Made by a program: the position numbers and the translations under genes. 64,000 bases of DNA from Leucothrix mucor DSM 2157 (GTDB lineage: Bacteria > Pseudomonadota > Gammaproteobacteria > Thiotrichales > Thiotrichaceae): positions 2,028,655 to 2,092,654 of the forward strand of contig NZ_ATTE01000001.1 in NCBI RefSeq assembly GCF_000419525.1, given 5' to 3'. Below the pieces are notes generated by a model. It was not told the DNA's origin, ran no database searches, and saw only the letters and a list, made by a program, of their open reading frames with translations. Of the stretch, positions 18,557 through 34,843 are shown one piece after another. How positions within the stretch are numbered: the stretch's first letter is position 1; each line of letters begins with the position of its first letter.

Positions 18557-18705
18557 ATGCATAACTAATCAGCTCGCTAAACAATGAATATTCCATGCTA
18601 AAAAAACGTTTACTTGTGATATTCATCTCTCTGTGGGCCAAGTACAAGCTTGCATGCAAATTAAGTTTATAATATAAGCATGGCTGACCCACAAAGGTTC
18701 CTACC

Positions 18706-19137
18706 ATGTCCAGTCTAATCCATACCATATACGCTAGCCGAGCCGTTAACGACTTTTCACAAGATGACATTGTCGATTTACTATCGAAAGCGAGAACGAA
18801 AAATGCATCGCTGGGTATAACGGGCATGCTGCTCTATGACGATGGCTCTTTCTTTCAGGTTTTGGAAGGAGAGGAAGCGGCGCTTGATCAGCTATTCAGT
18901 GAGATCTCCGACGACAAACGTCACCAGCAGGTCGCCAAAATCATTTCAGAAGCCATTCCAAAGCGACAATTTAGCGACTGGAGCATGGGCTATGCGGCGA
19001 TTTCAAGTGATGAGTTAAAAACCATCGAAGGCATGAATGACTTTTTCACTGAGCAAAACTGCCTTGCAGAAATAGATGCCGGACGGGCTAAAAAATTACT
19101 GAAAGCTTTCGCTCAGGGTCGCTGGAGACTGGACTAG
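18706..19137 (+). CDS. BLUF domain blue-light sensor protein
   Basis: 143 aa. BLUF signature YASRA...GITGMLLYDDGSFFQVLEG, with a conserved Tyr/Gln/Trp/Met set apparent. Confidence 0.8.
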   Translation: MSSLIHTIYASRAVNDFSQDDIVDLLSKARTKNASLGITGMLLYDDGSFFQVLEGEEAALDQLFSEISDDKRHQQVAKIISEAIPKRQFSDWSMGYAAISSDELKTIEGMNDFFTEQNCLAEIDAGRAKKLLKAFAQGRWRLD

Positions 19138-19139
19138 CA

Positions 19140-19868
19140 ATGTCCACGCCTGCCAGCCTAAGCAATATCGACTTTTCCCATGCATTTCAACCTATTGTAG
19201 ATATCGATGAAGGCAAGATTATCTCGTATGAGGTACTGGTAAGAGGCCCTAACCAAGAGTCTCCGGCAACTGTATTTAGCCAAGTGACTAAGCAACAATT
19301 CATGGACTTTGATCAGCTGATCAGGGAAAGAGGCATCGCACAAGCTGCCTCACTTGGACTTAGCTGCTGCTTGAGTCTCAACTTTACACCCGGCGAAATC
19401 CTATTCGCGCATGGCGCTTATGTTGAGCGCACTATTAGCGTTGCAGAACAACACAATATCCATGCACATCAGCTCATTATCGAAATCACCGAAAGTGAGG
19501 CAATACTGGATTTGCCACTGTTAGCAGAAATCATCAACAAGCTACGCCGCAGTGGTATAGCCATCTCTATTGATGACTTTGGATCGGGTTATGCAGGCTT
19601 AAGCCTGCTTGCAGATATTCAACCTGACCAGGTAAAAATCGATATACACCTGATCAAAAACGTTAATAAAAACGGCCCTCGGCAAACCATTGTAAAAGCC
19701 ATTAATAATATTTGTCTGGATCTTGGCATTGACGTGCTGGCAGAAGGCGTCGAAAGCCACGAGGAGTTTTTATTTTTAGAACGTGCGGGAATATCGCTGT
19801 ATCAAGGTTGGTTTATCGCACGACCAGCATTTGAATCCCTGCCACTAACGTTTGACTTAAAGCCTTAA
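19140..19868 (+). CDS. EAL domain c-di-GMP phosphodiesterase (stand-alone)
   Basis: 242 aa. EAL catalytic motifs are present (EVLVR, EITE, DDFGSGYAG, KIDIHLI, EGVE, QG). Its start is 2 nt after the BLUF stop. Confidence 0.8.
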   Translation: MSTPASLSNIDFSHAFQPIVDIDEGKIISYEVLVRGPNQESPATVFSQVTKQQFMDFDQLIRERGIAQAASLGLSCCLSLNFTPGEILFAHGAYVERTISVAEQHNIHAHQLIIEITESEAILDLPLLAEIINKLRRSGIAISIDDFGSGYAGLSLLADIQPDQVKIDIHLIKNVNKNGPRQTIVKAINNICLDLGIDVLAEGVESHEEFLFLERAGISLYQGWFIARPAFESLPLTFDLKP

Positions 19869-19923
19869 CAAACGCTTCCCACCTACTCCCCAACTCTTGC
19901 GACTATCGTTTGAATCACAGCGG

Positions 19924-20160
19924 CTATTTACATGTAAGCCATTCGACCAAGGTATCCATATCTTCTTCTACTTCATCATCGGTTTGAGTTATTACGGAAA
20001 TACCCAGGCGCGATACATGCGTTATAAAACCGGCAAGCGTCATTTTTGCCAAGCTTGCAGCGCATACTAGAGACAACTCACCATCCTTGAATAAGGTGGT
20101 TGCAAGGGCAATACGCACATCTGGGGTATCGAATGCTTTGATTTGATTAATAGTTATCAT
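19924..20160 (-). CDS. UPF0175-like small protein (putative orphan antitoxin-like)
   Basis: 78 aa, with a helical LAKMTLAGFITHVSRLGI pattern resembling UPF0175. No partner toxin gene is adjacent. Confidence 0.35.
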   Translation of the reverse strand: MITINQIKAFDTPDVRIALATTLFKDGELSLVCAASLAKMTLAGFITHVSRLGISVITQTDDEVEEDMDTLVEWLTCK

Positions 20161-20301
20161 TGCTAGACCTCAGGAAAAATCAGATAGGATTATCGTATGG
20201 TAAACTTCACAAAATAGCCATTAGGCAAGTTGATATAAGATGGCCCAGTTTCTGGCAGTCTCTGCTGTTAACCAATAGACTATAGCCACAACCTAAAACT
20301 A

Positions 20302-21135
20302 ATGGGAGGCAATACAATGACAAACGACAGCGTATTAAACAACGGACTTAAAATGCCTTGGCTAGGATTTGGCGTTTTCCAGATTGACGATGGCGGCTCG
20401 GTAGAAGGTGCCGTTCGCACAGCGCTAGACGTTGGCTATCGCAGCATTGATACCGCCGCCATTTACAAAAATGAAGCCGGCGTTGGGCAAGCAATTAAAG
20501 ACAGCGGCATTGCCCGCGAAGATATCTTTCTAACCACCAAGGTCTGGAATGATGCCCAGCGTGATAACAGCGTTGCGCAAGCCTTTGAAGATAGCTTGGA
20601 GCGCTTAGGAACCGACTATGTGGATTTGTACCTGGTACATTGGCCAGTGGCAAACTGCTATGAAGCGACATGGAAAGAGATGGAGAAGATTTACCAAAGT
20701 GGTCGCGCTAAAGCCATTGGCGTCAGTAACTTTCAGATCCATCATTTAAAAGACATTCTAGCGACGGCTGAAGTGGTTCCGGCCGTTAATCAGGTAGAGT
20801 TTCACCCACGACTACGCCAGCCAGAGCTGATGAAATTCTGTAAAGATAACAAGATCCAACTCGAAGCATGGAGCCCGCTCATGCAGGGGCATTTAGGTGA
20901 AGAGTCTGAGATTGTGGCGTTGGCAGAAAAGTACGGAAAGTCGCCTGCACAGATCATTTTACGTTGGGATATTCAGCATGAAGTGGTGACTATTCCAAAA
21001 TCAGCCACGCCAAGTCGCATTGCAGAAAATGCTCAGGTGTTTGATTTTGAATTGTCGCAGGATGATATGGCGGTATTGGATGCGCTAGATCAGGGAAAAC
21101 GTTTCGGACCTGACCCAGATACTTTTGACTTCTGA
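20302..21135 (+). CDS. Aldo/keto reductase (2,5-diketo-D-gluconate reductase-like)
   Basis: 277 aa with AKR motifs (IDTAAIY, LVHWP, IGVSNF). The start is probably the Met at MTNDSVL. Confidence 0.85.
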   Translation: MGGNTMTNDSVLNNGLKMPWLGFGVFQIDDGGSVEGAVRTALDVGYRSIDTAAIYKNEAGVGQAIKDSGIAREDIFLTTKVWNDAQRDNSVAQAFEDSLERLGTDYVDLYLVHWPVANCYEATWKEMEKIYQSGRAKAIGVSNFQIHHLKDILATAEVVPAVNQVEFHPRLRQPELMKFCKDNKIQLEAWSPLMQGHLGEESEIVALAEKYGKSPAQIILRWDIQHEVVTIPKSATPSRIAENAQVFDFELSQDDMAVLDALDQGKRFGPDPDTFDF

Positions 21136-21199
21136 CTAGGCAAAAAAGCAGAGGTCTCGTCATCGTTCTGACTGATGAGACCTCACTCTACGAGAGAGA

Positions 21200-21400
21200 T
21201 TAGGCCGCTTTTTTAGCTATCTTCTTAGCTACTGCGCGTGCTTTCTTGTTGTCGCCCTTCTTGATTTTCTTCAGCGCTTTCTTAGCCGCTGCTTTTACAA
21301 CTTTCTTGCTCTTAGAGACTTTTAAGCCTGCTTTTTTAACGGCTTTCTCTGCGAACTTTACTGCTTTTTTCTTGGCATCTTTCTTGTTTAACTTAGACAC
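21200..21400 (-). CDS. Histone H1-like Lys/Ala-rich nucleoid protein
   Basis: KKAVKFAEKAVKKAGLKVSKSKKVVKAAAKKALKKIKKGDNKKARAVAKKIAKKAA. A GTG start at 21398-21400 is preceded by AGGAGA with a 7-nt spacer. The ORF-track N-terminal extension to 21508 reads as non-coding. Confidence 0.6.
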   Translation of the reverse strand: MSKLNKKDAKKKAVKFAEKAVKKAGLKVSKSKKVVKAAAKKALKKIKKGDNKKARAVAKKIAKKAA

Positions 21401-21469
21401 GTATATGTCTCCTTTCGATAATTGAGACCAAACAATAATGTATATACATAGTATAGTCAAGTGAAGTAC

Positions 21470-21502
21470 AAAATTGTAGGGCCGCCGGTATGGCAGCCCT
21501 CT
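21470..21502 (-). terminator. Possible terminator downstream of the large helicase gene
   Basis: Minus-strand hairpin gggctgccataccggcggccc followed by a weak T-run (tacaatttt). Confidence 0.3.
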
Positions 21503-21549
21503 TTGCAATGACTACTACTTCATAGCCTGAGCAGGCTACAAGGAAAAGC

Positions 21550-24500
21550 CTAATTAACAACCGTCAGGTACGTTGGCCATTGACCACTGTTAACCATTAA
21601 AGCCGTATCAAATACTCTTTGCATCTTCTCTTCCTGAGCATCTGCAGTGGCCGAAAAGTTAAAAAGCTGCTGCTGTTTAGTCTGCACTTTAGGATTCCAG
21701 TACCCCATTCCTTGGTCAAATAACAATGTACTTTTTCTTCCAGATGCCCACTCAATTTCCATGCTCCTGCCATGTTGTAAGTCGTAAGTCTTATCGAACA
21801 ACTGAACAGTAGGAGTTATTCCGAAGGCACCGGAGAACAACATCTCTATGCAATTGGTCAGATCACTATCTCTTATCCAGTCGTGCTTTATTTCACGACT
21901 CGGATATGCCGCATTCACCTTAGGTCTTAAGGTTCTAATCTCGACACTCTCCAACTCATCACCACTTAGAAGCTCAATAAATCCACTCAATAAAACAGCT
22001 GACCACGGTGACTTAAGGTATCGATCAGAGTAAACAATTGAACGCACCTGATCAGTCTTCAATAAATCAGAAAACTCTTTTGCATAAGACTCAAATAGCT
22101 TGGAAATTCGATCACTTACGCTACTGACAGGGCCGTTTAGTTCCTCAGTAATCACCATGACCGATGTACCAGATGCAGGCTTAATCCATAGAGAAGTATC
22201 AACAGGGTTAACTGCGATAGGTTCTAACTCATTTGAAGTTGCCCAAGTATCTGTCTTAGAAGATTGGAGCCAAGTGTCACCGGGTATCAAAGGCTCAGGG
22301 TTGCTACAGAAAAGCGTATGACACCCCTCCTCAGAAAAGACCTGCAGAATCAAGTTGGCATCACTACTGTGTATTGCTTTATCAAGCTCTACTATACGCA
22401 CCCCAAGCTCAGAAATTCGAGACAGATCCCTTTGAATCTCAGCTTCGAAGGCACTTGCTGATTCGATACATAGCTCTACACTTACTTTATCAACCAACTG
22501 CCAACGTAATACCTGATCTCTAAACCCAGCAAAACCTAAGTCCCATTGACTAATGTCGTTACTGAGTAAAAGACGAATCGTGACTTCAGAAGATTTACTT
22601 TTTAACGTATTAATAGATCTTCTGATGTACTGGTTGGCACCTCTGGAGCAATATGTAGCACCGGGAATATCTTTAAGGGCGTCCGGTAAAGATAAGAATG
22701 ACAGATAATCACTTTCTTCTAGCCACTGCTTTGCAGCTTTTCTGTCTAACTCTTCTTGCTCAACTCTACTGTCTTGTGATGCTAAGCAGGCAGAACACAC
22801 ATTGTCACAATCAGCTATACAATTTAGCTTTTCCTTTACTGATCCGATGAGACCGACCAAATCATCAAGACCTGCTAATACAAAACCAGCTCCACCGCTA
22901 GCCTGATCGAACACCTGAATAACTGAGCGTTTAGAGCCCGTTTCAAGATCTCGATTTACTCTATAACTGAACCCCATTTCAGAACTAGAGATCCCCAAAC
23001 GATCGGCTAGTGCATCACGAAGTGCTACCGCTATAGTTGTAGCAACAACCTTATCTTCAGCAGAATCACTCAGCCACTGCCCAGTTTTTGGATTCTTTAA
23101 ATATAGCTCTAAAACATCTGTCGTGATTTGGTAGCCAAGGTATATATTTGGTTTGACTGCCTCACCGGAACAGCTTTGTTCCTTATCACTGCTAACGCTC
23201 CCTCCGCCTATGGGCTTATGCATTTCATCAGGTTGCAAGGCTTTAGGCACATTACCTTCATTCGTCATTGACTCTGCTCGTCCACAACTCATGCATACCG
23301 CATAGCCTTTTTCGTGCTCTCCAGATGAATTATAAAAAACGCGACCGTCATTCCCATATTGAACATGACCGCAGCGAGCATCAGGCAGCGAAATTGACTC
23401 ACCAATTAATTGAATAAGTGGCTTCTCTACGCGAATAAATTTTTGTGATGAAATGTCATTGCCCGGAGAGTCATAAAAATCAGTCTGGAAACCTGCTGGA
23501 CGTAAGACCTGCTTTTGGTTTTTCGAAGAAATTTCAGTATCACAACCATCGCAAGTCAGGTTTTCACTATTGCTGTAAGCATTTTCTTTTAAGCCACTAG
23601 CCCCACAATTAGTACAACGCCAAGCAATATCAAACTTCTGAGCTTCATTGATTGCGCCTCCTGCATGCCATTGTAAACTAACACCAACTGAGCGATACAC
23701 TTTCCCATCAATAACGACTTGCGCACCAGGGGCATACTCCCTAATTGCAACATCTAACCCCCGCGAAGGCAGCTCTTTCCACTTTCCAGTATTATCCTCC
23801 CGTCCTTCATTTTCTTTCTGTTTTTGTTTTTGAATAAAGTCATCCATATTATAGGTATTCAGCGTAACAACATCTGTTGGAAAACCATAAACTGGAAGGA
23901 ATGTACGAACAGAAAGGTCTCGTAAAAGGTATTCACCCCCGTGCCTCGTAAGCTCTAAGGATAATGCCCTTTTATAAGCATTCTCCTTAGCATTCCCAAT
24001 GAGGAGGTTTAACTTATCAAAATCAGTTTTCCATCTGGTTTGAATACCCCCAATCAGGTCAGATGCATCAACAAAAAGCTCCTCTAAAGAACGCCCTGAG
24101 ATACCGGTGCCTGCTGTTAACTTAGCGACTGCAGAAGCGACCTCTCCTGAGTGTGAGGCTGATTCCAGCCAGTCTCTAAACCTCTGACATGGAGAGTTTT
24201 CCCCGCTATAAAACCAGCTCACTGTAAGTTTTATATAATCATCACTAGGCTCAATAAAGGTTCGAAGAAAGTATGAGAGTAAATATGAATTCACATGTCT
24301 TAATACAATCTTATCCGAGCTTAACGTAATACTGGGTGCAGGAATTTTTGTGACAAATGGCCATACCGGGTCATTGAAAGCCCGTCTATTATGTGGGTCC
24401 GCTTTGCATAAAGTGTATGCAATAGCCCTAGACTCGCTTCTTCGCCCGGCACGACCCGCTCGCTGTAAATAGTTTGCCGGATGAGGTGGAACATTATTCA

Positions 24501-27500
24501 TTACAACAGCTGATATGCCGCCAATATCTACCCCCATCTCCATAGTCGTTGAGCAGTTCAGAACATTAATTTTTCCTCGCTTAAATAGCTCTTCATATTC
24601 CTCCAGACGCTCTGAGGTTTGCTGTGCGGAGTGTTCTGCTGTTCTATAGTAAAATCCCCCCTCAACTGTTCTATCGCTAAGATCTGTCCACAGACTCTCG
24701 CTCCTTAGCTCATCAACCTCCTGATCTTGACTAACAAGTTCTCGGATTTGAACTAACTTTGGTACAGCACTGCTATTAGGTCTAAATTTAGACAGGTCGG
24801 GCAACTTTACTTTCTTACATCGGTAGTCGACATCAGTAAGGATTTTTCGTGGTAGATAAGGTGTTAAACCTCTGAAAGTAGTATCAATCAGGCGATTTGT
24901 TTCACTACAGACCCAAGCTTCTCTAGGTAATGAAAAGGTAATTTTATCCAATAGCAGTTGATAACCCTTATCAGTTCTCACCAAAATATTTACATTATCG
25001 CTAGTCAGAGCCTCCCAAGCAGACTTTAACCATAAATTCAGCTTGTTTTGGTCTTCCCTATTTGTCATGTCAAGGTTGCAACCAGTAGCTAAGAGCTTGA
25101 TTAATCTAGATGCACTATTCCCCTTAGCCTGAGGCCACATCTTTATTGTATTGCTCTCATCTGTATTTGATTCTGGCGGAAACAAGGATTTTGGTGAAAA
25201 CTTTGAGCCCATCCAGAACCTGATGGTGTTCTCAAGTTTCAAATAAGTATTTTCACGAACAAAGAAGTCTAATGTCACTTTAAGAAAATCTTTCCAGTCA
25301 CTTAGGCTTAACCGTCCTTCTAAACTAACATCTCCTTGTATTGGAGATATCGCTCTCGTTTGCTCCCAGTACTGAGGAGCATGAGATACATTCGATAAAC
25401 CCTCATAATTAACCTTAATAATTCCCAATGTCTCGGTGCTGTTCTGGTTTTTAGGTCGTCGCGCATACTCTCTTGCCAATAAAAGGCGGGCAATGTATCG
25501 ACCAGTATTATCCTCTGACAGAATCTTCCGGTTAATTGATATATTGTAATCAAGAATATATTGACTAACATCGGTACAACCGGAAAGCTCGCTTACCATA
25601 TCTTGCCAGTTCATTTCTGCAGCTTCTGGTCGTGAATCACTATCAATTAGCGCCTCAGCCTGCTTTCTAAAAACTGCAGCACGATCAGACATTCCTTTTA
25701 ACTCAAAGGTTTCAGCAAATGTTATCAAATCATCATAAGAAAACTCCCCCATGGGGGAGTTTGTGATCTTTGAGTCAACATTTTTTTGATTCTCTGCCAA
25801 GATCTCAAATACCAATCCTCTTAACCTTGACCGCTCAGCTTCCTGCTGCATTCTTACCGCCATTCTTGCCGTGCCTTGGCGACTATCGGTAAAGGTAATA
25901 AGTTTGCGTCCACGCCCAGGAAGTTCTTCAGGTGACTTTCCAGCACAATCCTCTTTATCTGGATCTGGGCAATATTCTAAGACCGTAGGAACCGCATTCG
26001 CAGTGTAAAAAGGAGATCCTAAGTATAATTGACGATACCAAGAACCAAACTTGGAGGACTTTGCGTCACAGCGGCTACATATAGACTCTGAATGATTAAT
26101 ATGGGAAAAGCTGATTGAAGAGTTACTCTGATTAAGTACACCAAACTTAAGGCTCTCAGTATCCAATGAGCTTTTGCCATACGATTCATTTTTACAGTTA
26201 ATTCCCGCAATGACTTTTTTCGTATCATTTGGTTGAATATCTGGAGCTGAGTCTGAACTACCTTCAAAATCCTCACTATCTGATTCAGAATTTAGTGAAA
26301 ACTCATCCTCAACATAAGTGCTGATTTGCTGAAGCTCTCCTCCCTTATCTTCGGCAAGTAAATGAGGCTCCTTACATCCCTTACAAAACGTTAGTTCGTA
26401 AACAGGTGACCCACATGAACAACGTGACTTATGAGCAGTGTAAATATTTCCAAACGACCACTTTCCTAAACTCTCTGGTTTGGCTGTACATTTGGGGTCA
26501 ATGCAAGCCCACAGACCATGTAACATCTGCTGAAAAAGATGAATCCGAAGCTTAAGAAAAGGTGCTGACTCGATACTAGGCTTTGTGCCTGTCATTAAAT
26601 CTAACCACCCAAGAAGCTCCTGCTGCTTCTCTGTAAGAGATTGTCCCTCCAACCTATCACCGAACTCATTTACCAGTTCAGACAAATCAAGTGGACGATT
26701 TTGTTTCACAGCACCATTTAAACTACCCTTAAGAATGTATGTTCTCAGGTCGTGAGACAGCCTGTTATTAATTAAAGCCGTGAACCTACTTTCTGAAACT
26801 TCAGAGCCGAGCTCTATCTGTGATATTTCATCAAAGCTTAAGTTAGATAACTTTTCAGGAAGCGAGATTTCATCCCAAATTCTCCTTCCACCAATAACAA
26901 CAACTTGATTTGTAGAAACCCCTGCCAAGTCTGCTAAGTACTGTGTCAACTGTTCCTTAGCATCCTCACCTGCGATAGTTGCAGAAGTGGCGACAAAACG
27001 AATATCTTTCGCGTCTCTGCCAAATGCCTCAACAACCCTACGTAGCAGTAATGAGATCTCAGCAGCTTGGGACCCAACATAGGTATGTGCTTCATCCAGA
27101 ACAATCCAGCGCAGAGATTTGGCTTCTTTTGAAATACTAAGGATTGGGCTATCTACTTGCCTCACCAACATGTATTCCAGCATGGTAGCGTTTGTCATTA
27201 AAATGGGGGCTGGTTCTTTTCTTAATAGCTCGCGAGAAAGAATCTGATTAGGCTTTTTCTTTTGCTCTTTTCTAACACGGTCTGACCTCTCCTCTGTTTT
27301 ACCGTTGTATAAGCAAAAACGTAGGTCGCTACCATAGGATTTAGTCCAGGCATCGAGCCTTTCCTGCTGAGAATTGATCAGTGCATTCAAAGGATAAAGA
27401 AATAGTGCTCTCACTCCGACCAGAGCACCCTTTTGATTAGCTCTTTCCTGAATTAAATCCTCAAGTATGGGAATCATGAAACACTCGGTCTTACCTGACC

Positions 27501-27867
27501 CCGTTCCACTTGTAATGACTGCTGACTTAGGCTGCTTATCTAACAGTGTTTCCCAAGCCTGAATTTGATGCTTGTAAGGCTTTAGACTTCTTGGAAAATC
27601 ATAGGCATCAGCTTTCTCCAAATTATCAAGCAAGCTTCTTGATAAAAGCGTTCCTTCTAAACTTGCCAATGATATTGCTGACGGCTCCCAGCCAAAAGTG
27701 TGCTCAAAAACGGGGGCTGCCAGAAAGCACCCATCAGAACCCAGCTCATCATTCATCTGGCTTGCAAGGTGCTGCCTGAGCTCTGCATTATTGATACCTA
27801 AAATACTTAATGTAGCCTCTCTGGTGCGACTGAGGCTTTGGTTAATTAAGTCCTTGAAGAAGTACAT
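21550..27867 (-). CDS. Very large SF2 DEAD/DEAH helicase with DUF1998-like Cys4 zinc-ribbon domain and unknown C-terminal region. DruE-like; candidate Druantia type III helicase.
   Basis: 2105 aa. Q-motif PYKHQIQAW, Walker A TSGTGSGKTE, DEAH box VLDEAHTY, motif III TSAT, motif VI QRAGRAGRR. Cys clusters CTNCG...CDGC and CMSCG resemble DUF1998/MrfA-like. About 40% GC versus about 48% in the flanks. Confidence 0.65.
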   Translation of the reverse strand: MYFFKDLINQSLSRTREATLSILGINNAELRQHLASQMNDELGSDGCFLAAPVFEHTFGWEPSAISLASLEGTLLSRSLLDNLEKADAYDFPRSLKPYKHQIQAWETLLDKQPKSAVITSGTGSGKTECFMIPILEDLIQERANQKGALVGVRALFLYPLNALINSQQERLDAWTKSYGSDLRFCLYNGKTEERSDRVRKEQKKKPNQILSRELLRKEPAPILMTNATMLEYMLVRQVDSPILSISKEAKSLRWIVLDEAHTYVGSQAAEISLLLRRVVEAFGRDAKDIRFVATSATIAGEDAKEQLTQYLADLAGVSTNQVVVIGGRRIWDEISLPEKLSNLSFDEISQIELGSEVSESRFTALINNRLSHDLRTYILKGSLNGAVKQNRPLDLSELVNEFGDRLEGQSLTEKQQELLGWLDLMTGTKPSIESAPFLKLRIHLFQQMLHGLWACIDPKCTAKPESLGKWSFGNIYTAHKSRCSCGSPVYELTFCKGCKEPHLLAEDKGGELQQISTYVEDEFSLNSESDSEDFEGSSDSAPDIQPNDTKKVIAGINCKNESYGKSSLDTESLKFGVLNQSNSSISFSHINHSESICSRCDAKSSKFGSWYRQLYLGSPFYTANAVPTVLEYCPDPDKEDCAGKSPEELPGRGRKLITFTDSRQGTARMAVRMQQEAERSRLRGLVFEILAENQKNVDSKITNSPMGEFSYDDLITFAETFELKGMSDRAAVFRKQAEALIDSDSRPEAAEMNWQDMVSELSGCTDVSQYILDYNISINRKILSEDNTGRYIARLLLAREYARRPKNQNSTETLGIIKVNYEGLSNVSHAPQYWEQTRAISPIQGDVSLEGRLSLSDWKDFLKVTLDFFVRENTYLKLENTIRFWMGSKFSPKSLFPPESNTDESNTIKMWPQAKGNSASRLIKLLATGCNLDMTNREDQNKLNLWLKSAWEALTSDNVNILVRTDKGYQLLLDKITFSLPREAWVCSETNRLIDTTFRGLTPYLPRKILTDVDYRCKKVKLPDLSKFRPNSSAVPKLVQIRELVSQDQEVDELRSESLWTDLSDRTVEGGFYYRTAEHSAQQTSERLEEYEELFKRGKINVLNCSTTMEMGVDIGGISAVVMNNVPPHPANYLQRAGRAGRRSESRAIAYTLCKADPHNRRAFNDPVWPFVTKIPAPSITLSSDKIVLRHVNSYLLSYFLRTFIEPSDDYIKLTVSWFYSGENSPCQRFRDWLESASHSGEVASAVAKLTAGTGISGRSLEELFVDASDLIGGIQTRWKTDFDKLNLLIGNAKENAYKRALSLELTRHGGEYLLRDLSVRTFLPVYGFPTDVVTLNTYNMDDFIQKQKQKENEGREDNTGKWKELPSRGLDVAIREYAPGAQVVIDGKVYRSVGVSLQWHAGGAINEAQKFDIAWRCTNCGASGLKENAYSNSENLTCDGCDTEISSKNQKQVLRPAGFQTDFYDSPGNDISSQKFIRVEKPLIQLIGESISLPDARCGHVQYGNDGRVFYNSSGEHEKGYAVCMSCGRAESMTNEGNVPKALQPDEMHKPIGGGSVSSDKEQSCSGEAVKPNIYLGYQITTDVLELYLKNPKTGQWLSDSAEDKVVATTIAVALRDALADRLGISSSEMGFSYRVNRDLETGSKRSVIQVFDQASGGAGFVLAGLDDLVGLIGSVKEKLNCIADCDNVCSACLASQDSRVEQEELDRKAAKQWLEESDYLSFLSLPDALKDIPGATYCSRGANQYIRRSINTLKSKSSEVTIRLLLSNDISQWDLGFAGFRDQVLRWQLVDKVSVELCIESASAFEAEIQRDLSRISELGVRIVELDKAIHSSDANLILQVFSEEGCHTLFCSNPEPLIPGDTWLQSSKTDTWATSNELEPIAVNPVDTSLWIKPASGTSVMVITEELNGPVSSVSDRISKLFESYAKEFSDLLKTDQVRSIVYSDRYLKSPWSAVLLSGFIELLSGDELESVEIRTLRPKVNAAYPSREIKHDWIRDSDLTNCIEMLFSGAFGITPTVQLFDKTYDLQHGRSMEIEWASGRKSTLLFDQGMGYWNPKVQTKQQQLFNFSATADAQEEKMQRVFDTALMVNSGQWPTYLTVVN

Positions 27868-27873
27868 AAGCGA

Positions 27874-30800
27874 TTAATCCTTATCGTTTTTATTAAGTAA
27901 ATATGAGGTAACAAGTGCATGAGCTGGCCGATACCAAGAGGTCCTATCAAAGTCTGATATTTTTCTGACAAAGAACTTTAGCTCGGCCATCGTTGAGTTC
28001 ATTTTTAAGTCAGCAATACTAGATTTTCCTGAGGTTACATAAGCCATAAATATAGGCAGGTAAACCACTGAATCTTCATATTTTTCAAGAGGCAGTGCCT
28101 TAATTTTCTTTGAAAAATCTTGCTGTTCAACCCACGCTGAAAGTTCACCATTCAAATACTTTGGCCAAAGAGTGTTTTGATAGCTTTCATGAAGAGTGTC
28201 CCTCCACATAGGCAATATCAAGTCAGGTGGCAGACTTGTAAGCACCTCATTATTGCCACTGCTAAGGTAGTGTTCCACGCTCTCAAAGCCAGAAACGATG
28301 TTCGAAAGAACGGCTTTTCTGTTATCAACCATGTCATTAATAACAAATTCTGGAAGCCCCATTCCCCTCAGCCAACGATCATAATTTTTATAGGCTTGGC
28401 TCCAAATAGGTAAAGAAATACTTTCCCAGATTATCGACAACTCATCACGCATCCGGTCACTAAATAACTCATCAACCTCAAGGCGTAAAATCGATACTGC
28501 TAAGGTTAGTGGATTGCGTGAAAGTGAAAGCCAACTCTCAAAGGTAGACAGTGGTAGGTGATCAAATTTTCTTTTAATATCATCTAAATATTGCCACCCA
28601 CTGTGATCAAGATCACTTCCCATTTCGGCAATTTGGTCATCTATTACATGTGGATTATTCTGAGGGTGATAAAGCCGCGCAGCCTCATGTAAGGAGTGAA
28701 TTTTAGATCCGGAAGAATAGGTATTCGAAGCCGGTTGGCCGACTAGCAGATATGGCCTGAACTTGACTCTAGACTCTGCTTCTGGATAGAGCAACCAAGG
28801 CCCATCTCTATACATGGAGTCATCTGTGACAAATCGGCCAGTACCCACTCCCTGACTTGTTAGTTCACGCAATTCAATGGGGGTTTGCTTGGGATCAGAA
28901 AGGAGCATTGCGGAGACATTTACTCCACTAGCCACTCTACCAGTCGTGAAGTCAGATGCAGTGAAAACCTCTGTGCTATCTTTTGCGATAGACCCGTTAT
29001 ATCTTTTAATATTGACTGTCATTAAGCGACGCTGAGGGCTTTCAACCGTTAGCTTGACATAGGCATCCTGACTTTCCATCGCAGCCAATATCTGTCGTAA
29101 ATCATTTTGATACGCAAACAAATTAACAGAAAGCGGAACATCACCCGATTTGAACAACCGGTAATCAAGATAAACGTTAGTGCTGAAGTTCTTATCCTGC
29201 AACTCCATTCTCAGATGAAAGGACTGTGTTTCACCTACAGAAAATAGCAATATACTCAAGCCAATCAGATCTTCTGGGATCAAACTTTCGGACGTCAATA
29301 TATTGTTACTGGAGTCCAATAATCGCGCTCCCTCATAAGGAAAAGGTAAGCGTAGTATTACTGGCTCAAGAAATTCACCACCTTTAACACTTAATTGAAG
29401 ATTAGAGGGTGGTACTGCGTCTCGATAAGAAAGTGAAATAACCGATCGCCCCTCAATAATCTCTAAGCGGGAGCTGATATTTTCACCCATGACGCCAAAC
29501 TTACACTCACCTCCCCCCATAATTTCAAGGCGAGCTGGGCGAGTAGCATCACCGGCAAACAAACGGACTTTAAAGCTTTCAGGTAGTACACCGAATTTTC
29601 TCCTGAATAGAATTTCACCAGAGCTATTTTTAAGCGTGTAATTAAAGACCCCACCTATCTCACGCCGGCTTTTAGCAACTAACTCTCCATTAATATACTC
29701 ATAAACAGAACCTTCATTGCTCTTTTGGCACAGCTTTGGCCATCCCAGATAGACAGCGTTAGGGAGGGAATCAAAATCAAGCAGCTTTCCATCCAATGCA
29801 AACGTTTGAGTTACAGAAGGATGATTCAAACGAACTCTAAACTTATCACTTCCCAGAAAGATTGATGTCTCCTGGCTAAGCAAAACCCAGCGAACACCAT
29901 CAGTTTGTATATGCTTTATTTCTACACTTTCCGCTGGAGTAAAGTCAGCATTAGGTGGAAGCCGCACTAAAACTGCTGGTTGCCTCAAGGAACAACTCGC
30001 ATTTGCAAGCAGTTCCTGATCACCACTTACCTCAAAAATGACCGGTGCAGTTTCAAAGTCAATAGAGCTGGCATCAAACTGAGTTTGATAAATGGCAACA
30101 CCGTTATCCATCAAAGCCAAAGAAAGTGACTCACTACAGTCTCTTCTTTTTAACACTACTGGTGCTCTCGGTAGCCGTACTTTCAGCTCAGTACCATTTT
30201 GTACTTCACCATAGACAATGCTACCCCGAGCAATAAGCACACTGCCCTCATAGAATGCCATTTCAAGACGAGTACTGCTTAGAGCCGAAATATCAACCGG
30301 AAAGGTTACCGCAATAGGCGTAATGAGTTGTGCCTGTAAATCCCAGTGACCTTCAACTTGTCCAGCAATACTGTGCGTACACCTGAAATCATTCGGTGTC
30401 TTTTTAATGATTTCATTTTCTGCCTGACGCTTACTTGCATCACGCAACCAGTCCGTAATCAGGTTTTTAGCATTAGCTTCATTAAGTGGTAGAGGAAAAT
30501 CTTTTTTCCAGCGGGGCTCAGCTTTATCTAAAAATTCAACCGGATCTATTTCTTGCTTCAAGCTGGGATACTTTCCTGCGAGATGCATCAGCTGTTCAAT
30601 CACACCTGCAAGCAATTGTCGGGTTTCAAGGTTGTGAAAGGTATAAGGCAAGTCTTGCTCATAACTGGCAATCATGTCACTCGTCGTGCCTAAACTGGCT
30701 TTATTGCTATGGTAATTCTTCAAACCCTTTCTGATTACACGCCCAAAGCCGTGTGTTTCGCTTTTTATCAGCGGCCAAGGCAGCCCGCCCTCCAGAAATA

Positions 30801-31176
30801 ATGAGCCAATAAAATTCCGACCTTTTTCTGTACGACGTATTGGCCTTTTCCAAAAGCTTTCTAAGCCATAACTTATGAGTTCACTTCTTAGACCTTGCTT
30901 AAAATCACAACCTAATGACTTATCTGCCCACTCCCACGACCAGCTACCCTCTTCTGCTCCGTAGTCGCGCCGAAACCTTTCTGCTACAAATAAACAATAG
31001 AGCTCAGCCCAATGCTTACCTTTGATCGGGTCTGTAGCGAATCTAATATTGGCGATTAACTTATTTTTCAGGCTTTGAAATTCCTCAAATGTTACGTGAT
31101 AACTATACAAAGGCTTACCAGTTGGCCCAGCAAAACATTCACGAATAAAGAGAAACTCACTCAACCAAGCCTTCAT
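27874..31176 (-). CDS. Large protein of unknown function upstream of the helicase. DruH-like; candidate Druantia type III partner.
   Basis: 1100 aa with no recognisable motif. Its stop is 6 nt before the helicase start. Size and order (unknown ~1000-aa protein then DUF1998 helicase) match the type III Druantia architecture. Low GC. Confidence 0.45.
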   Translation of the reverse strand: MKAWLSEFLFIRECFAGPTGKPLYSYHVTFEEFQSLKNKLIANIRFATDPIKGKHWAELYCLFVAERFRRDYGAEEGSWSWEWADKSLGCDFKQGLRSELISYGLESFWKRPIRRTEKGRNFIGSLFLEGGLPWPLIKSETHGFGRVIRKGLKNYHSNKASLGTTSDMIASYEQDLPYTFHNLETRQLLAGVIEQLMHLAGKYPSLKQEIDPVEFLDKAEPRWKKDFPLPLNEANAKNLITDWLRDASKRQAENEIIKKTPNDFRCTHSIAGQVEGHWDLQAQLITPIAVTFPVDISALSSTRLEMAFYEGSVLIARGSIVYGEVQNGTELKVRLPRAPVVLKRRDCSESLSLALMDNGVAIYQTQFDASSIDFETAPVIFEVSGDQELLANASCSLRQPAVLVRLPPNADFTPAESVEIKHIQTDGVRWVLLSQETSIFLGSDKFRVRLNHPSVTQTFALDGKLLDFDSLPNAVYLGWPKLCQKSNEGSVYEYINGELVAKSRREIGGVFNYTLKNSSGEILFRRKFGVLPESFKVRLFAGDATRPARLEIMGGGECKFGVMGENISSRLEIIEGRSVISLSYRDAVPPSNLQLSVKGGEFLEPVILRLPFPYEGARLLDSSNNILTSESLIPEDLIGLSILLFSVGETQSFHLRMELQDKNFSTNVYLDYRLFKSGDVPLSVNLFAYQNDLRQILAAMESQDAYVKLTVESPQRRLMTVNIKRYNGSIAKDSTEVFTASDFTTGRVASGVNVSAMLLSDPKQTPIELRELTSQGVGTGRFVTDDSMYRDGPWLLYPEAESRVKFRPYLLVGQPASNTYSSGSKIHSLHEAARLYHPQNNPHVIDDQIAEMGSDLDHSGWQYLDDIKRKFDHLPLSTFESWLSLSRNPLTLAVSILRLEVDELFSDRMRDELSIIWESISLPIWSQAYKNYDRWLRGMGLPEFVINDMVDNRKAVLSNIVSGFESVEHYLSSGNNEVLTSLPPDLILPMWRDTLHESYQNTLWPKYLNGELSAWVEQQDFSKKIKALPLEKYEDSVVYLPIFMAYVTSGKSSIADLKMNSTMAELKFFVRKISDFDRTSWYRPAHALVTSYLLNKNDKD

Positions 31177-31427
31177 AAACTAGATCCTCGGCTTATTTTC
31201 AAGCCAACTGTTTTCATATAACAGCAACAATAAGACGCCAAAAACTACTAATATTTGCCGCTTCTAATAAATTATCAACAATAGAACATACCCCTTTCAA
31301 AAAAAATAATAAACAATGAGTTAAGGACATAAAATTTAATATGTAATCAAACAAATAAGTGGTACCTCTTATGAGCTCTAAGATTTGATCTCTTAAAGAG
31401 TAAGAAATACCACCTATAATGGCTCTA

Positions 31428-32573
31428 TCATTCCAAGCGCACCGTGCTATTCATCAGTCCTTCCAAGCCGCCATACACCTTCAGCTCACAAATATTGCTG
31501 GTAATACTTTCCAGTACTTCCAGCTCTTTCAAGCGCAATAGCACAGGATTACCTTCCATCAATTTGGCCGTATTATGCAGCGAACGCGTGGCCTGAGTTT
31601 CTTCACGACGACGAATCAAATTCGCTTCAGCCTGCTTTTCAGCCGCTACTACTTCAATCAGGATTTCCTTCATATCACCTGGTAACACGATATCTCGCAC
31701 GCCGACCTTTTTCAGGTCAAGGCCATAGGCTGACACACTCTCCAGCACTAGCTCATGCACTTGCTGGTTTAGCAGGTTTTTATCCGCCAACAATTGGTCC
31801 AGCGTTTGAGTCGAGACCACGCTGCGCAATGCCAGCTGCAGTTCACGATACAAAAACGCCTCATGATCTTTAATCGCATCACGGACTTTAATGGCATCCA
31901 ATACCTGCCACGTCGCTGAGACATTAATCCGCAGGCTCACCTTGTCCTTGGTTAAAATCTCCTGACCATTCACCTCCATGGTCTGCAAGCGCATATCCAT
32001 CATCTGCAAACTCACATACGGATTAACCAACCACCAGCCATGCTGGCCTTCTTGCAAAACGGCATGACGCACACCGCTCACCAATAAGAAACCGATATGT
32101 CCTTCCGGCACATAGCCCAGCGTGTACAAGCAAGTCACCAGGTGGCTTTTTAGCAATGGCTCACGGGTTTTCGCCAACTCATCCGCCAAGCTAGCGCTCA
32201 ACAGATAGCTATTGCTGATATCCAACGTGCGAAACTCCAACTCGCGCTTACCTTTCCAATACGCGCCACTACGACCTGGTGCGGCGATGTCTTTAAGCAC
32301 GCCGGCTTCGTAAAACATTCCAATAGCTTGCGGGCCAGTTTCCCAGCTCATCACATGCTCTGTGAATGCCTCCGGGTGCAACTCGACCAAGTGCAATAAA
32401 TCCTGATCGACGCGTCGAAACTCATTACTCACCGCATACTGCTGAATACTGATCTCACCGCGTAAATTCCAATGTTCATAACAGCCCGGCGTTAAAATCG
32501 CCTGAAACTGCTGATTTTTAAACAGCAATCCGCGGTGTGATTCCGGAATAATTGTTTTCATTTTGAATAACAT
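31428..32573 (-). CDS. SPFH/band 7 (stomatin/prohibitin/flotillin-like) domain protein
   Basis: 381 aa. Band-7 core (VSLRINVSATWQV...KKVGVRDIVLPGDMKEI) followed by a coiled-coil region EVVAAEKQAEANLIRRREETQA. Confidence 0.75.
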   Translation of the reverse strand: MLFKMKTIIPESHRGLLFKNQQFQAILTPGCYEHWNLRGEISIQQYAVSNEFRRVDQDLLHLVELHPEAFTEHVMSWETGPQAIGMFYEAGVLKDIAAPGRSGAYWKGKRELEFRTLDISNSYLLSASLADELAKTREPLLKSHLVTCLYTLGYVPEGHIGFLLVSGVRHAVLQEGQHGWWLVNPYVSLQMMDMRLQTMEVNGQEILTKDKVSLRINVSATWQVLDAIKVRDAIKDHEAFLYRELQLALRSVVSTQTLDQLLADKNLLNQQVHELVLESVSAYGLDLKKVGVRDIVLPGDMKEILIEVVAAEKQAEANLIRRREETQATRSLHNTAKLMEGNPVLLRLKELEVLESITSNICELKVYGGLEGLMNSTVRLE

Positions 32574-32860
32574 GCTGCTTCTCCTGCAAAATTCATAAAT
32601 AAAGTCGGCATAGCCTTCACACCTGAACGAGCGTCGATATTTACACTAAACGGGGCTAAGCGCCGGATGCCTCATAACAAGGTATTGACGGTCACTTGCC
32701 GCACTTAATGGACCCATACCAAAGGTCATTCAATGTGCTGGATGCCTGCTCAGTGCCGCCGACTCAGTGTGTTGCCACGCTGCGCCCGCTTTACCTAACA
32801 AACATCCCGAAGGCTATTGCCTAGTGGCCCTTTCGGGCAGTTAAGACAACTGGGAGAGTT

Positions 32861-32935
32861 GTTTTGCTAGTTGGAATCGAACCAACAACCGATTGATGAT
32901 GAGTCAATTGCTCTACCGCTTGAGCTATAACAAAT
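32861..32935 (-). ncRNA. tRNA-like element with CAT anticodon-like loop. It could be a degenerate tRNA-Met/Ile2 or a YrlA-type Y-RNA tRNA-mimic module.
   Basis: The minus strand folds as a cloverleaf: acceptor TTTGTTA/TAGCAAA (one G-U pair), D-stem GCTC/GAGC, anticodon stem ATTGA/TCAAT with loop CTCATCA, T-arm GTTGG-TTCGATT-CCAAC. It is non-canonical: U at position 1, C at position 37 and no encoded CCA. It sits between a sigma-54 promoter and the SPFH gene. Confidence 0.5.
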
Positions 32936-33067
32936 TGCCGTGCTTTTCGCACAGCGTGCTATGACCCTACACAGCCGATACACAGCCACTTTCAGAGAAA
33001 GCCTGTGTCAGGCAGGTATACAGAACCTGCTCCGCTGGCCAATGCAGTTAACAGTCATAAATAATCT

Positions 33068-33086
33068 ATTGCACGGCACGTGCCAA
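33068..33086 (-). promoter_or_regulatory. Sigma-54 (-24/-12) promoter divergent from rtcR, embedded in the palindrome GGCACGTGCC
   Basis: Minus strand reads TTGGCACG-TGCC-GTGCAAT. GG and GC elements have the correct spacing (TGGCACG-N4-TTGCA consensus) with one mismatch. It lies about 150 nt upstream of the rtcR start, on the opposite strand. Confidence 0.55.
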
Positions 33087-33238
33087 CTTTAGAATTAAAA
33101 TCATAAATAACTGAAAATTAAGGATTATTTATTTTTCATCCTCGAAAGGCCAAAACACCAAAATTGAACTAATTATTTTTTCAGATAAATTTATACGGTT
33201 TTAGATATACTGAATTAAATCGAACTTAGGGTTACATT

Positions 33239-34843
33239 ATGACCAGTAACGTCATCATCAGTATTTTGGGTAGTAAGCTTGATCATCGTGGCTTTGGTCA
33301 GAAGCGATTTGAACGCTGGCGACCCAATGTTGCACTAGCTCAGCACCCTGAGTTACCCATTGATGAGTTTATTCTGCTGTATCACCCCGACCATGAAGCG
33401 CTGGCTAAATTAACGCTGGGAGATATCAAAGAGGTGTCGCCTAGCACCAAGCTCACCGGTATTACGCTTAATATCGACGACCCTTGGAATTTTGAGCAGG
33501 TGTATGGCGAGCTGCACGATGTGATGAAGCGCATCTCTTTCGACCCTGAAAATCACAATTACTACACGCACATCACTACCGGTACGCATGTCGCGCAGAT
33601 CTGTTTGTACCTGTTAACCGAGGCGCGCTTTATTCCCGGTAAGTTACTGCAATCCTCACCACTCAAAGAAGGCAATGGCGGCTCTTATCAAATTATTGAT
33701 TTGGATTTATCCTGCTATGATCAAATTGCGTCACGCTTTGCGGCCGAGGCGCGCCAAGGGGTTGACCATTTAAAAGGCGGCATCCAAACCCGCAATGCCG
33801 CTTTTAATAAAATGATGGCGCAGCTGGAGCAGGTATCGATTCGCTCGACCGCACCGATTTTACTCACTGGCCCGACCGGTGCCGGTAAATCGCAATTGGC
33901 GCGTCGTATTTATGCACTGAAGCAGAAGCGCGGTTTGGTCAGCGCTGATCTGGTGGAAGTTAACTGCGCGACCTTACGCGGCGACAATGCTATGTCCGCG
34001 CTATTTGGCCATGTAAAAGGGGCCTTTACCGGTGCCTTAAATGCGCGTACCGGCCTGCTGCGTGAAGCCAATAAAGGTCTGTTATTTCTCGATGAAATTG
34101 GCGAGCTGGGGCTGGATGAGCAGGCCATGTTACTACGGGCGATTGAGGATAAGGTCTTTATGCCGCTGGGCTCCGATCGCAATATCAGTAGCGATTTTCA
34201 ACTGATTGCCGGCACCAATCGCAACCTATTCCAACGCGTTAGCGAAGGCTTGTTCCGCGAAGATTTACTGGCGCGTATCAATCTTTGGACCTATGAAATC
34301 CCCTCGCTAAAAGCGCGGCAGGAAGATTTAGACCCCAATATCGACTATGAACTGCAGCAGTTCACCCATAAAGCGGGCCACAATGTGCGCTTCAATAAAA
34401 CTGCGCGCAAGCAATACCTTGATTTTGCCCACTCCGGCGAAGCCAGCTGGCGCGCCAATTTCCGCGATTTAAACTCCAGCATGACGCGCATGGCGACACT
34501 GGCCAGCGGTGGGCGCATTACCGAAGCAATCATTGCCGATGAAATCGTACGCTTGCAATCAGACTGGGCAAACCATGAAACAAAAGCTTCAGGCAGCACC
34601 TCGGTAGCTGACACTCTGCAAAGCATTTTATCCGATGCGGCAATTGCCGAAATCGACCTGTTTGATCACGCACAACTGGCCCATGTCATCGAAATTTGTC
34701 GCGGTAGTAAAAGCATGGCCGAGGCCGGTCGTAAACTGTTTAATGTGAGCCGAGAGCGCCGTAGCAGCAGCAATGACAGCAACCGGCTCAAAGTCTATCT
34801 CAACAAATTTGACTTAGAGTTTAAGCAGCTCACGGCCAACTGA
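33239..34843 (+). CDS. rtcR: Sigma-54-dependent transcriptional activator RtcR (N-terminal CARF-like domain + AAA+ + HTH)
   Basis: 534 aa. It is near-collinear with E. coli RtcR across all domains (WRPNV, HITTGTHVAQIC, LLTGPTGAGKSQLARRI, VEVNCATLRGDNAMSALFGHVKGAFTGA, GNFRDL). Confidence 0.9.
   Translation: MTSNVIISILGSKLDHRGFGQKRFERWRPNVALAQHPELPIDEFILLYHPDHEALAKLTLGDIKEVSPSTKLTGITLNIDDPWNFEQVYGELHDVMKRISFDPENHNYYTHITTGTHVAQICLYLLTEARFIPGKLLQSSPLKEGNGGSYQIIDLDLSCYDQIASRFAAEARQGVDHLKGGIQTRNAAFNKMMAQLEQVSIRSTAPILLTGPTGAGKSQLARRIYALKQKRGLVSADLVEVNCATLRGDNAMSALFGHVKGAFTGALNARTGLLREANKGLLFLDEIGELGLDEQAMLLRAIEDKVFMPLGSDRNISSDFQLIAGTNRNLFQRVSEGLFREDLLARINLWTYEIPSLKARQEDLDPNIDYELQQFTHKAGHNVRFNKTARKQYLDFAHSGEASWRANFRDLNSSMTRMATLASGGRITEAIIADEIVRLQSDWANHETKASGSTSVADTLQSILSDAAIAEIDLFDHAQLAHVIEICRGSKSMAEAGRKLFNVSRERRSSSNDSNRLKVYLNKFDLEFKQLTAN

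Follow-up and report, generated by a model that had tools for sequence, protein, structure and literature searches.

The analysed DNA, a window of 64,000 nucleotides from Leucothrix mucor DSM 2157, carries a two-gene anti-phage system of Druantia type III, an identification about which we have virtually no doubt. Our fuller reading, held with high confidence, is that the locus is a complete and intact Druantia type III (III-A) system of the Pseudomonas-type clade, residing in a strain-variable chromosomal cassette of 9.95 kb in Leucothrix and working by the mechanism proposed below. Its identity and completeness, the conservation of its catalytic residues, purifying selection on its genes, and the borders of the insertion are demonstrated here.

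The ORF scan recovered two minus-strand ORFs, of 2105 and 1100 aa (druE and druH; Table 1), whose coordinates and separation, as given in the original prediction, proved exact on recheck. The druH gene precedes druE with a gap of 6 nt (TAA-tcgctt-ATG); the 3' end of druH contains an AAGGA ribosome-binding site. The same gene order and spacing were found in L001 and L002, and the same order, with the genes abutting, in E. coli (L017). The predicted AT richness was borne out by measurement: the GC content of the cassette was 42.3%, versus 48.7% for the remaining window, and it was at least 47.8% in all 176 equal-sized windows lying outside the cassette in the 64 kb. The GC3 values of druE (0.365) and druH (0.371) were about 3.8 SD below those of the host genes (0.525 +/- 0.041 for the 22 other long ORFs).

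Table 1. Features of the druHE cassette and its borders (positions within the window)
Feature	Position (strand)	Description	Basis
Whole acquired block	21480..31429 (-)	9,950 bp	blastn vs L020; GC 0.423 vs 0.487
druH	27874..31176 (-)	1100 aa; YjiT / STY4851-ECs_5259 family	PADLOC DruH3, hhalign, AF2 model
druE	21550..27867 (-)	2105 aa; YprA-like SF2 helicase, Zn clusters, MZB/DUF1998, two PLD-like domains	
5' spacer	31177..31427 (-)	AT-rich (30% GC)	GC, promoter scan, RNA fold
Predicted terminator	~31417-31344 (-)	Hairpin and U tract in 5' spacer	RNA fold
Predicted sigma-70-like promoter	31300-31271 (-)	TTGAAA-18-GATAAT, within spacer	Promoter scan
Terminator-like hairpin	21478..21500 (-)	AGGGCTGCC-ATACC-GGCGGCCCT and T-rich tail; right junction	Terminator scan

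Identity and conservation of DruE and DruH

Both proteins matched the PADLOC type III profiles end to end. DruE aligned to DruE3 (PDLC00037) with 2411.9 bits (E = 0), over protein residues 2-2103 and profile positions 4-2052 of 2055, and DruH aligned to DruH3 (PDLC00050) with 1208.3 bits, over residues 1-1098 and positions 5-1099 of 1101. Other PADLOC profiles matched DruE partially (DruE1, 556 bits; DruE2, 375; DruE4, 336; DpdJ, 103; DrmA, 50). The locus was assigned to Druantia type III because of these full-length matches and the homology of both proteins to the solved E. coli structures (1025 bits for DruE against 9tu7; hhalign probability of 100% and an E value of 1.5e-39 for DruH against 9tud). 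This agrees with the druH-druE call of the original prediction, while its other suggestion, a divergent or new variant or an undescribed helicase system, is not supported, the locus being an ordinary Pseudomonas-type III-A member. DruE shares 63% identity with a DruE from Thiothrix, 54% with P0145 from P. aeruginosa, and 33% with its E. coli homologue. PADLOC on the flanking genes found no DruA-D, DruM, DruF, or DruG near the cassette, nor did Zorya II, ARMADA II, or a satellite-like mobile element adjoin it. The flanking genes, encoding an SPFH protein, a 66-aa basic protein, and an aldo-keto reductase, are host genes.

All the helicase motifs named in the original prediction were located in DruE: the Q-motif glutamine is Q101, followed by GSGKT (residues 123-127), DEAH (258-261), SAT (295-297), and QRAGRAGR (1135-1142). 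The motif columns (Q, I, II, III, and VI) were invariant in 64 DruE homologues, including the positions of E. coli K121, D251/E252, and R1135/R1139, and the conserved residues comprise Q101, G123/S124/K126, R170, D258/E259, and R1139/R1143. Of the DNA-contact positions known from E. coli DruE that we compared, most were kept, and 12 were invariant in 64/64 homologues. Pfam domains DEAD (99-304), Helicase_C (1074-1143), and MZB/DUF1998 (1613-1695; 28 bits against a cut-off of 24.2) were matched. The expected zinc-type cysteine motifs were present too (CTNCG at 1418, CDGC at 1439, and CMSCG at 1525), among 21 cysteines invariant in all 64 homologues, most of which lie as CxxC-type pairs in about five clusters (455/460/483/485, 495/498/597/600, 1418/1421/1439/1442, 1525/1528/1566, and 1683/1687/1691/1694). 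Two PLD-like domains occupy the C terminus.

DruH had been described as a protein of no recognisable domain, which held for the Pfam release searched, where its 1100 residues gave no match; however, that release predates two families carried by DruH homologues, YjiT_N (PF27201) and YjiT_2nd (PF27205), and NCBI likewise names the family (STY4851/ECs_5259 family). In the suggested structural check, an AF2 model (pLDDT 86.7, pTM 0.82) placed Ig-like beta repeats (265-811) between helical regions (1-258 and 829-1099). Foldseek against the PDB returned only weak matches to Ig-array proteins, 9TUD not among them, and the published studies likewise report Ig-array proteins only (Loeff et al.; Himpich et al.). 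In the N-terminal helical domain, R12, E32, E66, R69, R70, R111, and E129 were invariant or nearly so and were shared with E. coli DruH.

Both ORFs are intact and of family-typical length, all invariant residues are kept, and dN/dS between the two strain alleles of the cassette was 0.10-0.16 (0.16 for druH against the L018 allele). These observations speak against the idea that the defence cassette is decaying and no longer functional, to which the missing mobility genes and partner systems nearby might otherwise point and which we consider very improbable. The purifying selection also lends indirect support to a putative anti-phage role that requires both proteins.

The acquired block and its surroundings

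In a closely related Leucothrix contig (L020), the site was empty. Alignment of the window with it by blastn covered positions 4905-21479 (95% identity) and 31430-36210 (93%), and between them, starting right behind the SPFH stop codon, the block stands in place of 44 bp in L020. The host genes flanking the cassette are also present there. Horizontal acquisition, proposed earlier from composition, therefore follows directly from the pair of empty and occupied sites, and the composition is indeed foreign. The 5' spacer was present in the occupied-site contigs L018 and L003, the 5' end of the latter, spacer included, being about 95% identical to the window, and absent from L020; judged by sequence, the AT-rich spacer arrived together with the cassette. 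The right-junction hairpin lies 50 nt past the druE stop codon, and junction alignment showed related sequence at the same position in empty-site L020. We found no direct or inverted repeats of at least 10 nt at the block ends and no integrase, transposase, other mobility gene, or partner defence system nearby. This clean natural pair shows that an integrase-less druHE cassette of 9.95 kb can pass among strains as a self-contained unit, which carries its own terminator-like hairpin and predicted promoter.

Three other accounts of the borders were rejected. A low-GC island does not reach into the SPFH gene, whose GC3 (0.565) is host-like. A tRNA-Met did not serve as the integration site, as the tRNA-like gene (32861-32934) lies beyond SPFH and outside the insert. 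Finally, Druantia did not replace the RlaP of an RNA-repair module: RlaP follows SPFH in 5/12 related loci, from other genera (Reinekea, Porticoccus, and Agarilytica), but the Leucothrix empty site runs from SPFH to the 66-aa gene, and the 64-kb window holds no RlaP remnant.

The variable presence of the locus also bears on whether the pair could be a housekeeping helicase (MrfA/YprA/Lhr type) that serves DNA repair alongside a conserved partner. DruE does have a YprA/MrfA helicase core, matching 6znp with 64 bits at residues 97-308, as well as an MZB domain, yet it is larger than MrfA by a factor of about 2.8, and the DruE3 and DruH3 profiles matched over the full length while everything else was partial. 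Conserved chromosomal context, which the original prediction had named as the finding that would speak for a housekeeping family, was not observed: presence and absence vary among close Leucothrix strains, the related strain has an empty site, and the composition is foreign (GC3 as above). We find the housekeeping alternative hardly credible.

Relatives of the cassette were sought further afield. No match was found by megablast of positions 21000-33000 against E. coli genomes, no exact-protein record was found for DruH, SPFH, or the aldo-keto reductase, a peptide-pattern scan of species-representative genomes yielded no close DruH relative, and the viral contigs searched held no relative of the cassette.

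The SPFH gene 5' of the block is part of an RtcR/sigma-54 module that also includes a tRNA-like RNA, and SPFH proteins are reportedly linked with such RNAs. The tRNA-like gene was kept upstream of SPFH in 11/12 related loci, with varying "anticodons". On the minus strand, a near-consensus predicted sigma-54 promoter (TGGCAC-N5-GTGCA, 33085-33070) points toward the tRNA-like gene, SPFH, druH, and druE, all in the same direction, and the insert begins immediately past the SPFH stop. One could thus imagine druHE to be wired into the RtcR operon, sigma-54 read-through via the tRNA-like RNA and SPFH raising druHE expression on RNA damage, all the more so as superoperons under the control of RtcR homologues, with Druantia III among their members, have been described (Bell et al. 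2024). We hold this unlikely. The RtcR/SPFH module occurs in L020 in the absence of Druantia and hence is no component of it; a 51%-identical DruH relative adjoins integrase, HipA, and T4SS genes instead of RtcR; and the E. coli copies of Druantia III adjoin Zorya II. Moreover, the spacer presents first a strong hairpin with a U tract and then a sigma-70-like promoter, both predicted from pattern or fold, and transcription of the cassette would most likely start from this promoter of its own. It is similarly doubtful that the insertion site is no accident and that RNA damage, sensed as 2',3'-cyclic-phosphate tRNA fragments by the RtcR CARF domain, induces Druantia III. If it did, a defence aimed at DNA would answer to an RNA-damage alarm, a coupling already hypothesised for RtcR-CoCoNuT-Druantia III superoperons; the literature precedent for an RtcR-module neighbour makes the regulatory link testable.

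Proposed mechanism and the question of nuclease activity

The mechanism of Druantia III, still unknown according to the original prediction, has since been addressed in four preprints of May 2026 and one paper of 2026 (Loeff et al., Wu et al., Hu et al., Himpich et al., and Li & He 2026), with structures PDB 9TU7-9TUD; that statement is out of date. The reports disagree on nuclease activity. Loeff, Chanez & Jinek 2026 (bioRxiv 10.64898/2026.05.13.724313) reported nuclease activities for the P. aeruginosa system. In E. coli, by contrast, neither Hu et al. nor Himpich et al. detected nuclease activity of DruE or DruH, and both found that the PLD domains can be dispensed with.

We infer every biochemical step for Leucothrix from characterised homologues. 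By this analogy, DruE would rest as an auto-inhibited dimer until ssDNA becomes accessible at forks or 3' ends in intermediates of phage replication or recombination. DruH would engage the exposed ssDNA, possibly trimming 3' ends as in the P. aeruginosa system, and its C-terminal helical domain would recruit DruE, which would then translocate 3'->5' on ssDNA at the expense of ATP and unwind the phage DNA. The unwound DNA may be degraded by the PLD-like domain or else made unusable, and the host would not be killed. That a helicase drives the attack on phage DNA intermediates containing ssDNA is probable in our view, and we lean slightly toward the nucleolytic version of this attack (Loeff/Wu) over the non-nucleolytic one (Hu/Himpich).

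The non-nucleolytic version of the same system, in which DruE unwinds 3'-overhang DNA and DruH sequesters ssDNA via a nucleobase pocket, ATP blocking the pocket until NTP pools fall and other host nucleases finishing the work, is possible but the less likely of the two. It agrees with the E. coli data and with the non-canonical PLD motif of DruE (HxR instead of HxK(x)4D), and the aromatic nature of E. coli DruH Y670 is preserved (F653). Against it, the core of the PLD-like pocket (D1948-R1949-Y1950 and H2032-x-R2034...D2051-Q-G-M-G-Y-W) was invariant in 64/64 homologues, which argues for functional constraint on the pocket, and among characterised systems the closest relative, that of P. aeruginosa, has reported nuclease activities. 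The remaining residues of the E. coli DruH pocket were not conserved in the clade: R1031 lies within an E. coli-specific insertion, S1022 takes the place of H1062 (most of the clade has Pro there), the columns of R1064 and K1067 are variable, and N672, H689, and Y733 have given way to other residues. Y670 is thus the only one kept of the eight residues of the E. coli-type nucleobase/ATP pocket, although at 21% identity a structurally equivalent pocket is possible, and the profile alignment to E. coli DruH ends at about residues 955-964, short of the C-terminal pocket region.

The mapping to the DruE of Loeff et al. was reliable only at the level of motifs (DRY and HxR). For the residues mutated in P. 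aeruginosa (DruH R22/K28/E64/E220; DruE D1740, H1830, R1951, and S2022), a constant offset fitted no homologue, and D1740 may equal D1771 or D1776. The conservation pattern of this Pseudomonas-clade member, with the PLD core and the N-terminal charges of DruH invariant and the E. coli ATP/nucleobase pocket not, bears on a live controversy. Pseudomonas-type (exonuclease) and E. coli-type (ATP-gated ssDNA clamp) DruH may be subclasses that differ in mechanism; if so, the two subclasses would reconcile the conflicting reports of 2026.

Comparison with known systems

A YprA-like SF2 core and a DUF1998/MZB module are common to DISARM, Druantia I, II, and IV, Dpd, ARMADA, and the Leucothrix system. 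In DISARM, however, DrmA and DrmB (DUF1998) are separate proteins, whereas helicase and DUF1998 are fused in Leucothrix DruE, and DrmA profiles matched the latter over short stretches (50 and 32 bits). DISARM further comprises DrmC and a methyltransferase; neither a PLD-only DrmC nor a methyltransferase gene was found near the cassette.

[quoted passage not shown] DruE is homologous over its full length, and the core residues of the helicase, the zinc clusters, and the PLD pocket are all shared, while DruH is homologous over about 900 residues at 21% identity and the C-terminal ATP/nucleobase pocket of the E. coli protein (R1031, H1062, R1064, and K1067) is not conserved. The E. coli plasmid copy lies between Zorya II and SNF2/methyltransferase genes.

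The closest counterpart is the P. aeruginosa III-A system (PaDruantia), which has the same two-gene druH-druE operon and a DruE of the same clade. The domains of its DruE follow one another as in Leucothrix (N-terminal domain, RecA1, large insertion, RecA2, zinc clusters, DUF1998/MZB, and two PLD-like domains), its DRY and HxR pocket motifs are also found in Leucothrix DruE, and its DruH likewise has Ig-like repeats between two helical domains, one at each terminus. The two differ in host, Leucothrix belonging to the Thiotrichales, and the Leucothrix DruH is merely about 41-43% identical to the Pseudomonas-genus sequences found. With Druantia type III catalogued, widespread, and now structurally solved, the discovery value is limited: the Leucothrix cassette is a divergent member of the Pseudomonas clade and a further example of a system already known rather than one of a new kind.

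Assignment of the gene pair

The two minus-strand ORFs of the original prediction were reproduced exactly, separated by a 6-nt gap and with a Shine-Dalgarno-like AAGGA within the 3' end of druH. Their AT-richness relative to the neighboring genes was also borne out: GC content was 42.3% in the cassette block versus 48.7% in the remaining window, it was at least 47.8% in all 176 same-length windows elsewhere in the 64 kb, and GC3 was 0.365 for druE and 0.371 for druH versus 0.525 +/- 0.041 for the 22 other long ORFs.

PADLOC-DB profiles were then run on both proteins. DruE matched DruE3 (PDLC00037) with 2411.9 bits (residues 2-2103 on profile positions 4-2052 of 2055), and DruH matched DruH3 (PDLC00050) over its full length with 1208.3 bits. 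The DruE profiles of types I, II, and IV gave only partial matches to DruE (336-556 bits), and those of DpdJ, BrxH, and DrmA were likewise partial and far weaker than DruE3/DruH3. The full-length matches uphold the type III call; the suggestion of a new variant found no support, the pair being a textbook Druantia type III-A system of an already catalogued kind. DruE shares 98% identity with a metagenomic protein, 63% with one from Thiothrix, 54% with a DruE of P. aeruginosa, and 33% with that of E. coli, which places the system in the Pseudomonas-type clade of type III. The solved E. coli ATCC 8739 proteins scored 1025 bits (DruE, 9TU7-9TUC) and 75 bits (DruH, 9TUD) against their window counterparts, and a DruH clade profile matched E. 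coli DruH with a probability of 100% (E = 1.5e-39, 908 columns, 21% identity). Homologues of DruH bear the NCBI name STY4851/ECs_5259 family and contain YjiT_N and YjiT_2nd, two of the more recent Pfam families.

Features of the cassette and its surroundings (window coordinates)
Feature	Position	Strand	Remarks
BLUF (143 aa) and EAL (242 aa) genes	18706-19868	+	adjoining; EAL protein RimA-like, 228 bits
66-aa protein gene	21200-21400	-	histone H1-like
Acquired insert	21480-31429		9,950 bp; replaces 44 bp relative to empty site (L020)
druE	21550-27867	-	2105 aa
Palindrome, 22 nt	25741-25762		perfect
druH	27874-31176	-	1100 aa
SPFH/Band-7 gene	31428-32573	-	co-directional with cassette
tRNA-like gene ("tRNA-Met CAT")	32861-32934	-	Rfam tRNA, 62.5 bits
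Sigma-54 promoter (predicted)	33085-33070	-	near-consensus
rtcR	33239-34843	+	NCBIfam RtcR, 765 bits; divergently transcribed
EamA-type transporter ORF	35968-36876	-	
AT skew	36001-38000		+0.33; spans two ORFs

Acquisition and possible exchange of the cassette

The window is chromosomal, since it holds coaBC, fumC, ppnN, and other housekeeping genes; the GltX encoded 5 kb away shows 100% identity to its Leucothrix mucor counterpart. L020, a metagenomic Leucothrix contig of 176 kb, runs collinear with the window at 93-95% identity and is without the cassette; the gene order at this empty site is lacI, rtcR, SPFH, the 66-aa gene, and aldo-keto reductase. Together with the foreign GC content, the empty site confirmed the horizontal acquisition proposed originally. 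The insert begins right behind the SPFH stop codon, its other end is a hairpin resembling the empty-site sequence, and no terminal repeats, integrase, or transposase was found at it. The cassette is in place in two further contigs (L018 and L003/L004). Over its first 5 kb the copies of the window and L018 are 99.0-99.8% identical, and over the flanks the two are 93-96% identical, a pattern that fits an exchange among strains by recombination. The dN/dS ratio was 0.16 for druH and 0.10 for druE. No defence-family match was found in the flanking genes or in a sample of ten other ORFs from across the window, nor was this Druantia clade found on viral contigs. The E. coli druH-druE copies adjoin Zorya II.

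A more distant pair (51%/63% identical to the window pair) occurs in ENA ERZ28653773 scaffold_614, positions 154-16970. At one end of its druH-druE genes lie a tyrosine integrase and a HipBA-like toxin-antitoxin pair, at the other T4SS coupling-protein and zeta-toxin-like genes; the cassette of this organism is carried on an integrative or conjugative element.

The 66-aa gene encodes a Lys/Ala-rich basic protein (MSKLNKKDAKKKAVKF...) and has its own predicted sigma-70-like promoter, RBS, GTG start, and terminator; being also at the empty site, it is a host gene. A 102-aa ORF call (21200-21508) was rejected as an over-extended version of it. The adjoining BLUF and EAL genes, the former assigned from the Pfam annotation of L020, suggest a c-di-GMP phosphodiesterase that is split over two proteins and regulated by blue light. 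The strong AT skew over two minus-strand ORFs, the EamA-type transporter gene and a 419-aa ORF, probably stems from the T-rich codon usage of membrane proteins rather than from a structural feature.

The RtcR module and cassette expression

The upstream module, in which RtcR (CARF, sigma-54 activator) drives a tRNA-like RNA and an SPFH/Band-7 protein, is host DNA, as indicated by its GC3 of 0.56 and its presence at the empty site. Neither rtcB nor rtcA is present in the module (31428-34843). Among 12 related loci, the tRNA-like gene is paired with SPFH in 11, with varying "anticodons," rtcR is present in 8, and RlaP lies 3' of SPFH in 5, all from other genera. This arrangement matches an RNA-repair module reportedly described by Burroughs and Aravind in 2016.

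The cassette brought its own spacer of 251 nt (30% GC), in which a long hairpin and U tract are followed by a predicted sigma-70-like promoter, so that expression independent of the RtcR module would be the default reading. RtcR-associated superoperons containing Druantia III are on record, and a regulatory link from RtcR to the cassette is therefore conceivable but unproven. The juxtaposition is testable, which gives the locus value beyond its classification, as do the pair of empty and occupied sites and a pattern of residue conservation relevant to the nuclease debate.

Conserved residues and mode of action

Every helicase and cysteine motif read by eye in the original prediction was located at a defined DruE residue (GSGKT starting at 123, DEAH at 258, SAT at 295, QRAGRAGR at 1135, CTNCG at 1418, CDGC at 1439, and CMSCG at 1525), and Pfam assigned DEAD, Helicase_C, and MrfA Zn-binding (DUF1998) domains. 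The reference in our family alignments was an E. coli plasmid copy (L017), which agrees with the published E. coli numbering at all 17 residues. Conserved in DruE are Q101 (Q motif), G123, S124, and K126 (Walker A), R170, D258 and E259 (DEAH), and R1139 and R1143 (motif VI). Conservation also extends to most of the DNA-contact residues of E. coli that were tested, 12 of them being invariant in 64/64 sequences. Twenty-one cysteines are invariant, and the majority are arranged as CxxC-type pairs, which fall into about five clusters.

The amino-acid differences between the DruE alleles of the window and L018 are concentrated in two patches, with 15 of 39 at residues 701-746 and 13 of 39 at 1829-1882; diversifying selection acting locally, or a patch of recombination, may be behind this clustering. 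The first patch roughly aligns with the dimerisation subdomain (K683-N753) deleted in E. coli, and inside it lies the palindrome AAACTCCCCCATGGGGGAGTTT, which is not in L018.

In the AlphaFold model of DruH (pLDDT 86.7, pTM 0.82), residues 1-258 form a helical N-domain and residues 829-1099 a helical C-domain, with a beta-rich, Ig-like section (265-811) between them; this is the same three-part layout as the published architecture. Foldseek returned only Ig-array proteins, as the DruH authors likewise reported. The N-domain shares with E. coli the invariant or near-invariant charged residues R12, E32, E66, R69, R70, R111, and E129. The E. coli ATP/nucleobase pocket (Y670, N672, H689, Y733, R1031, H1062, R1064, K1067) is unconserved in the window clade save Y670, which is F653 in window DruH; the profile alignment ends before the C-terminal pocket region.

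The original prediction regarded the mechanism as unknown, which is outdated given the solved structures and the work of Loeff, Wu, Hu, Himpich et al. In all published work on Druantia III, defence needs both DruH and DruE, and DruE is a dimeric 3'->5' SF2 helicase that loads on ssDNA, either at tails or at forks; defence is direct, and the host survives, in both E. coli and P. aeruginosa. The studies conflict on the killing step. For P. aeruginosa, Loeff et al. (bioRxiv 10.64898/2026.05.13.724313) described DruH as a 3'-5' exonuclease and DruE as a PLD nuclease, activated as a 1:1 complex on forked DNA, and Wu et al. found nuclease activity in both proteins. Hu et al. and Himpich et al. reported an E. 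coli system without nuclease activity, with dispensable PLD domains, and according to Hu et al. DruH binds ssDNA in a manner inhibited by ATP. Since the P. aeruginosa system is the nearest to that of the window, whose DruE retains the PLD-pocket core and whose DruH lacks the E. coli pocket, we favor, with moderate confidence, the helicase-nuclease model for the Leucothrix system.
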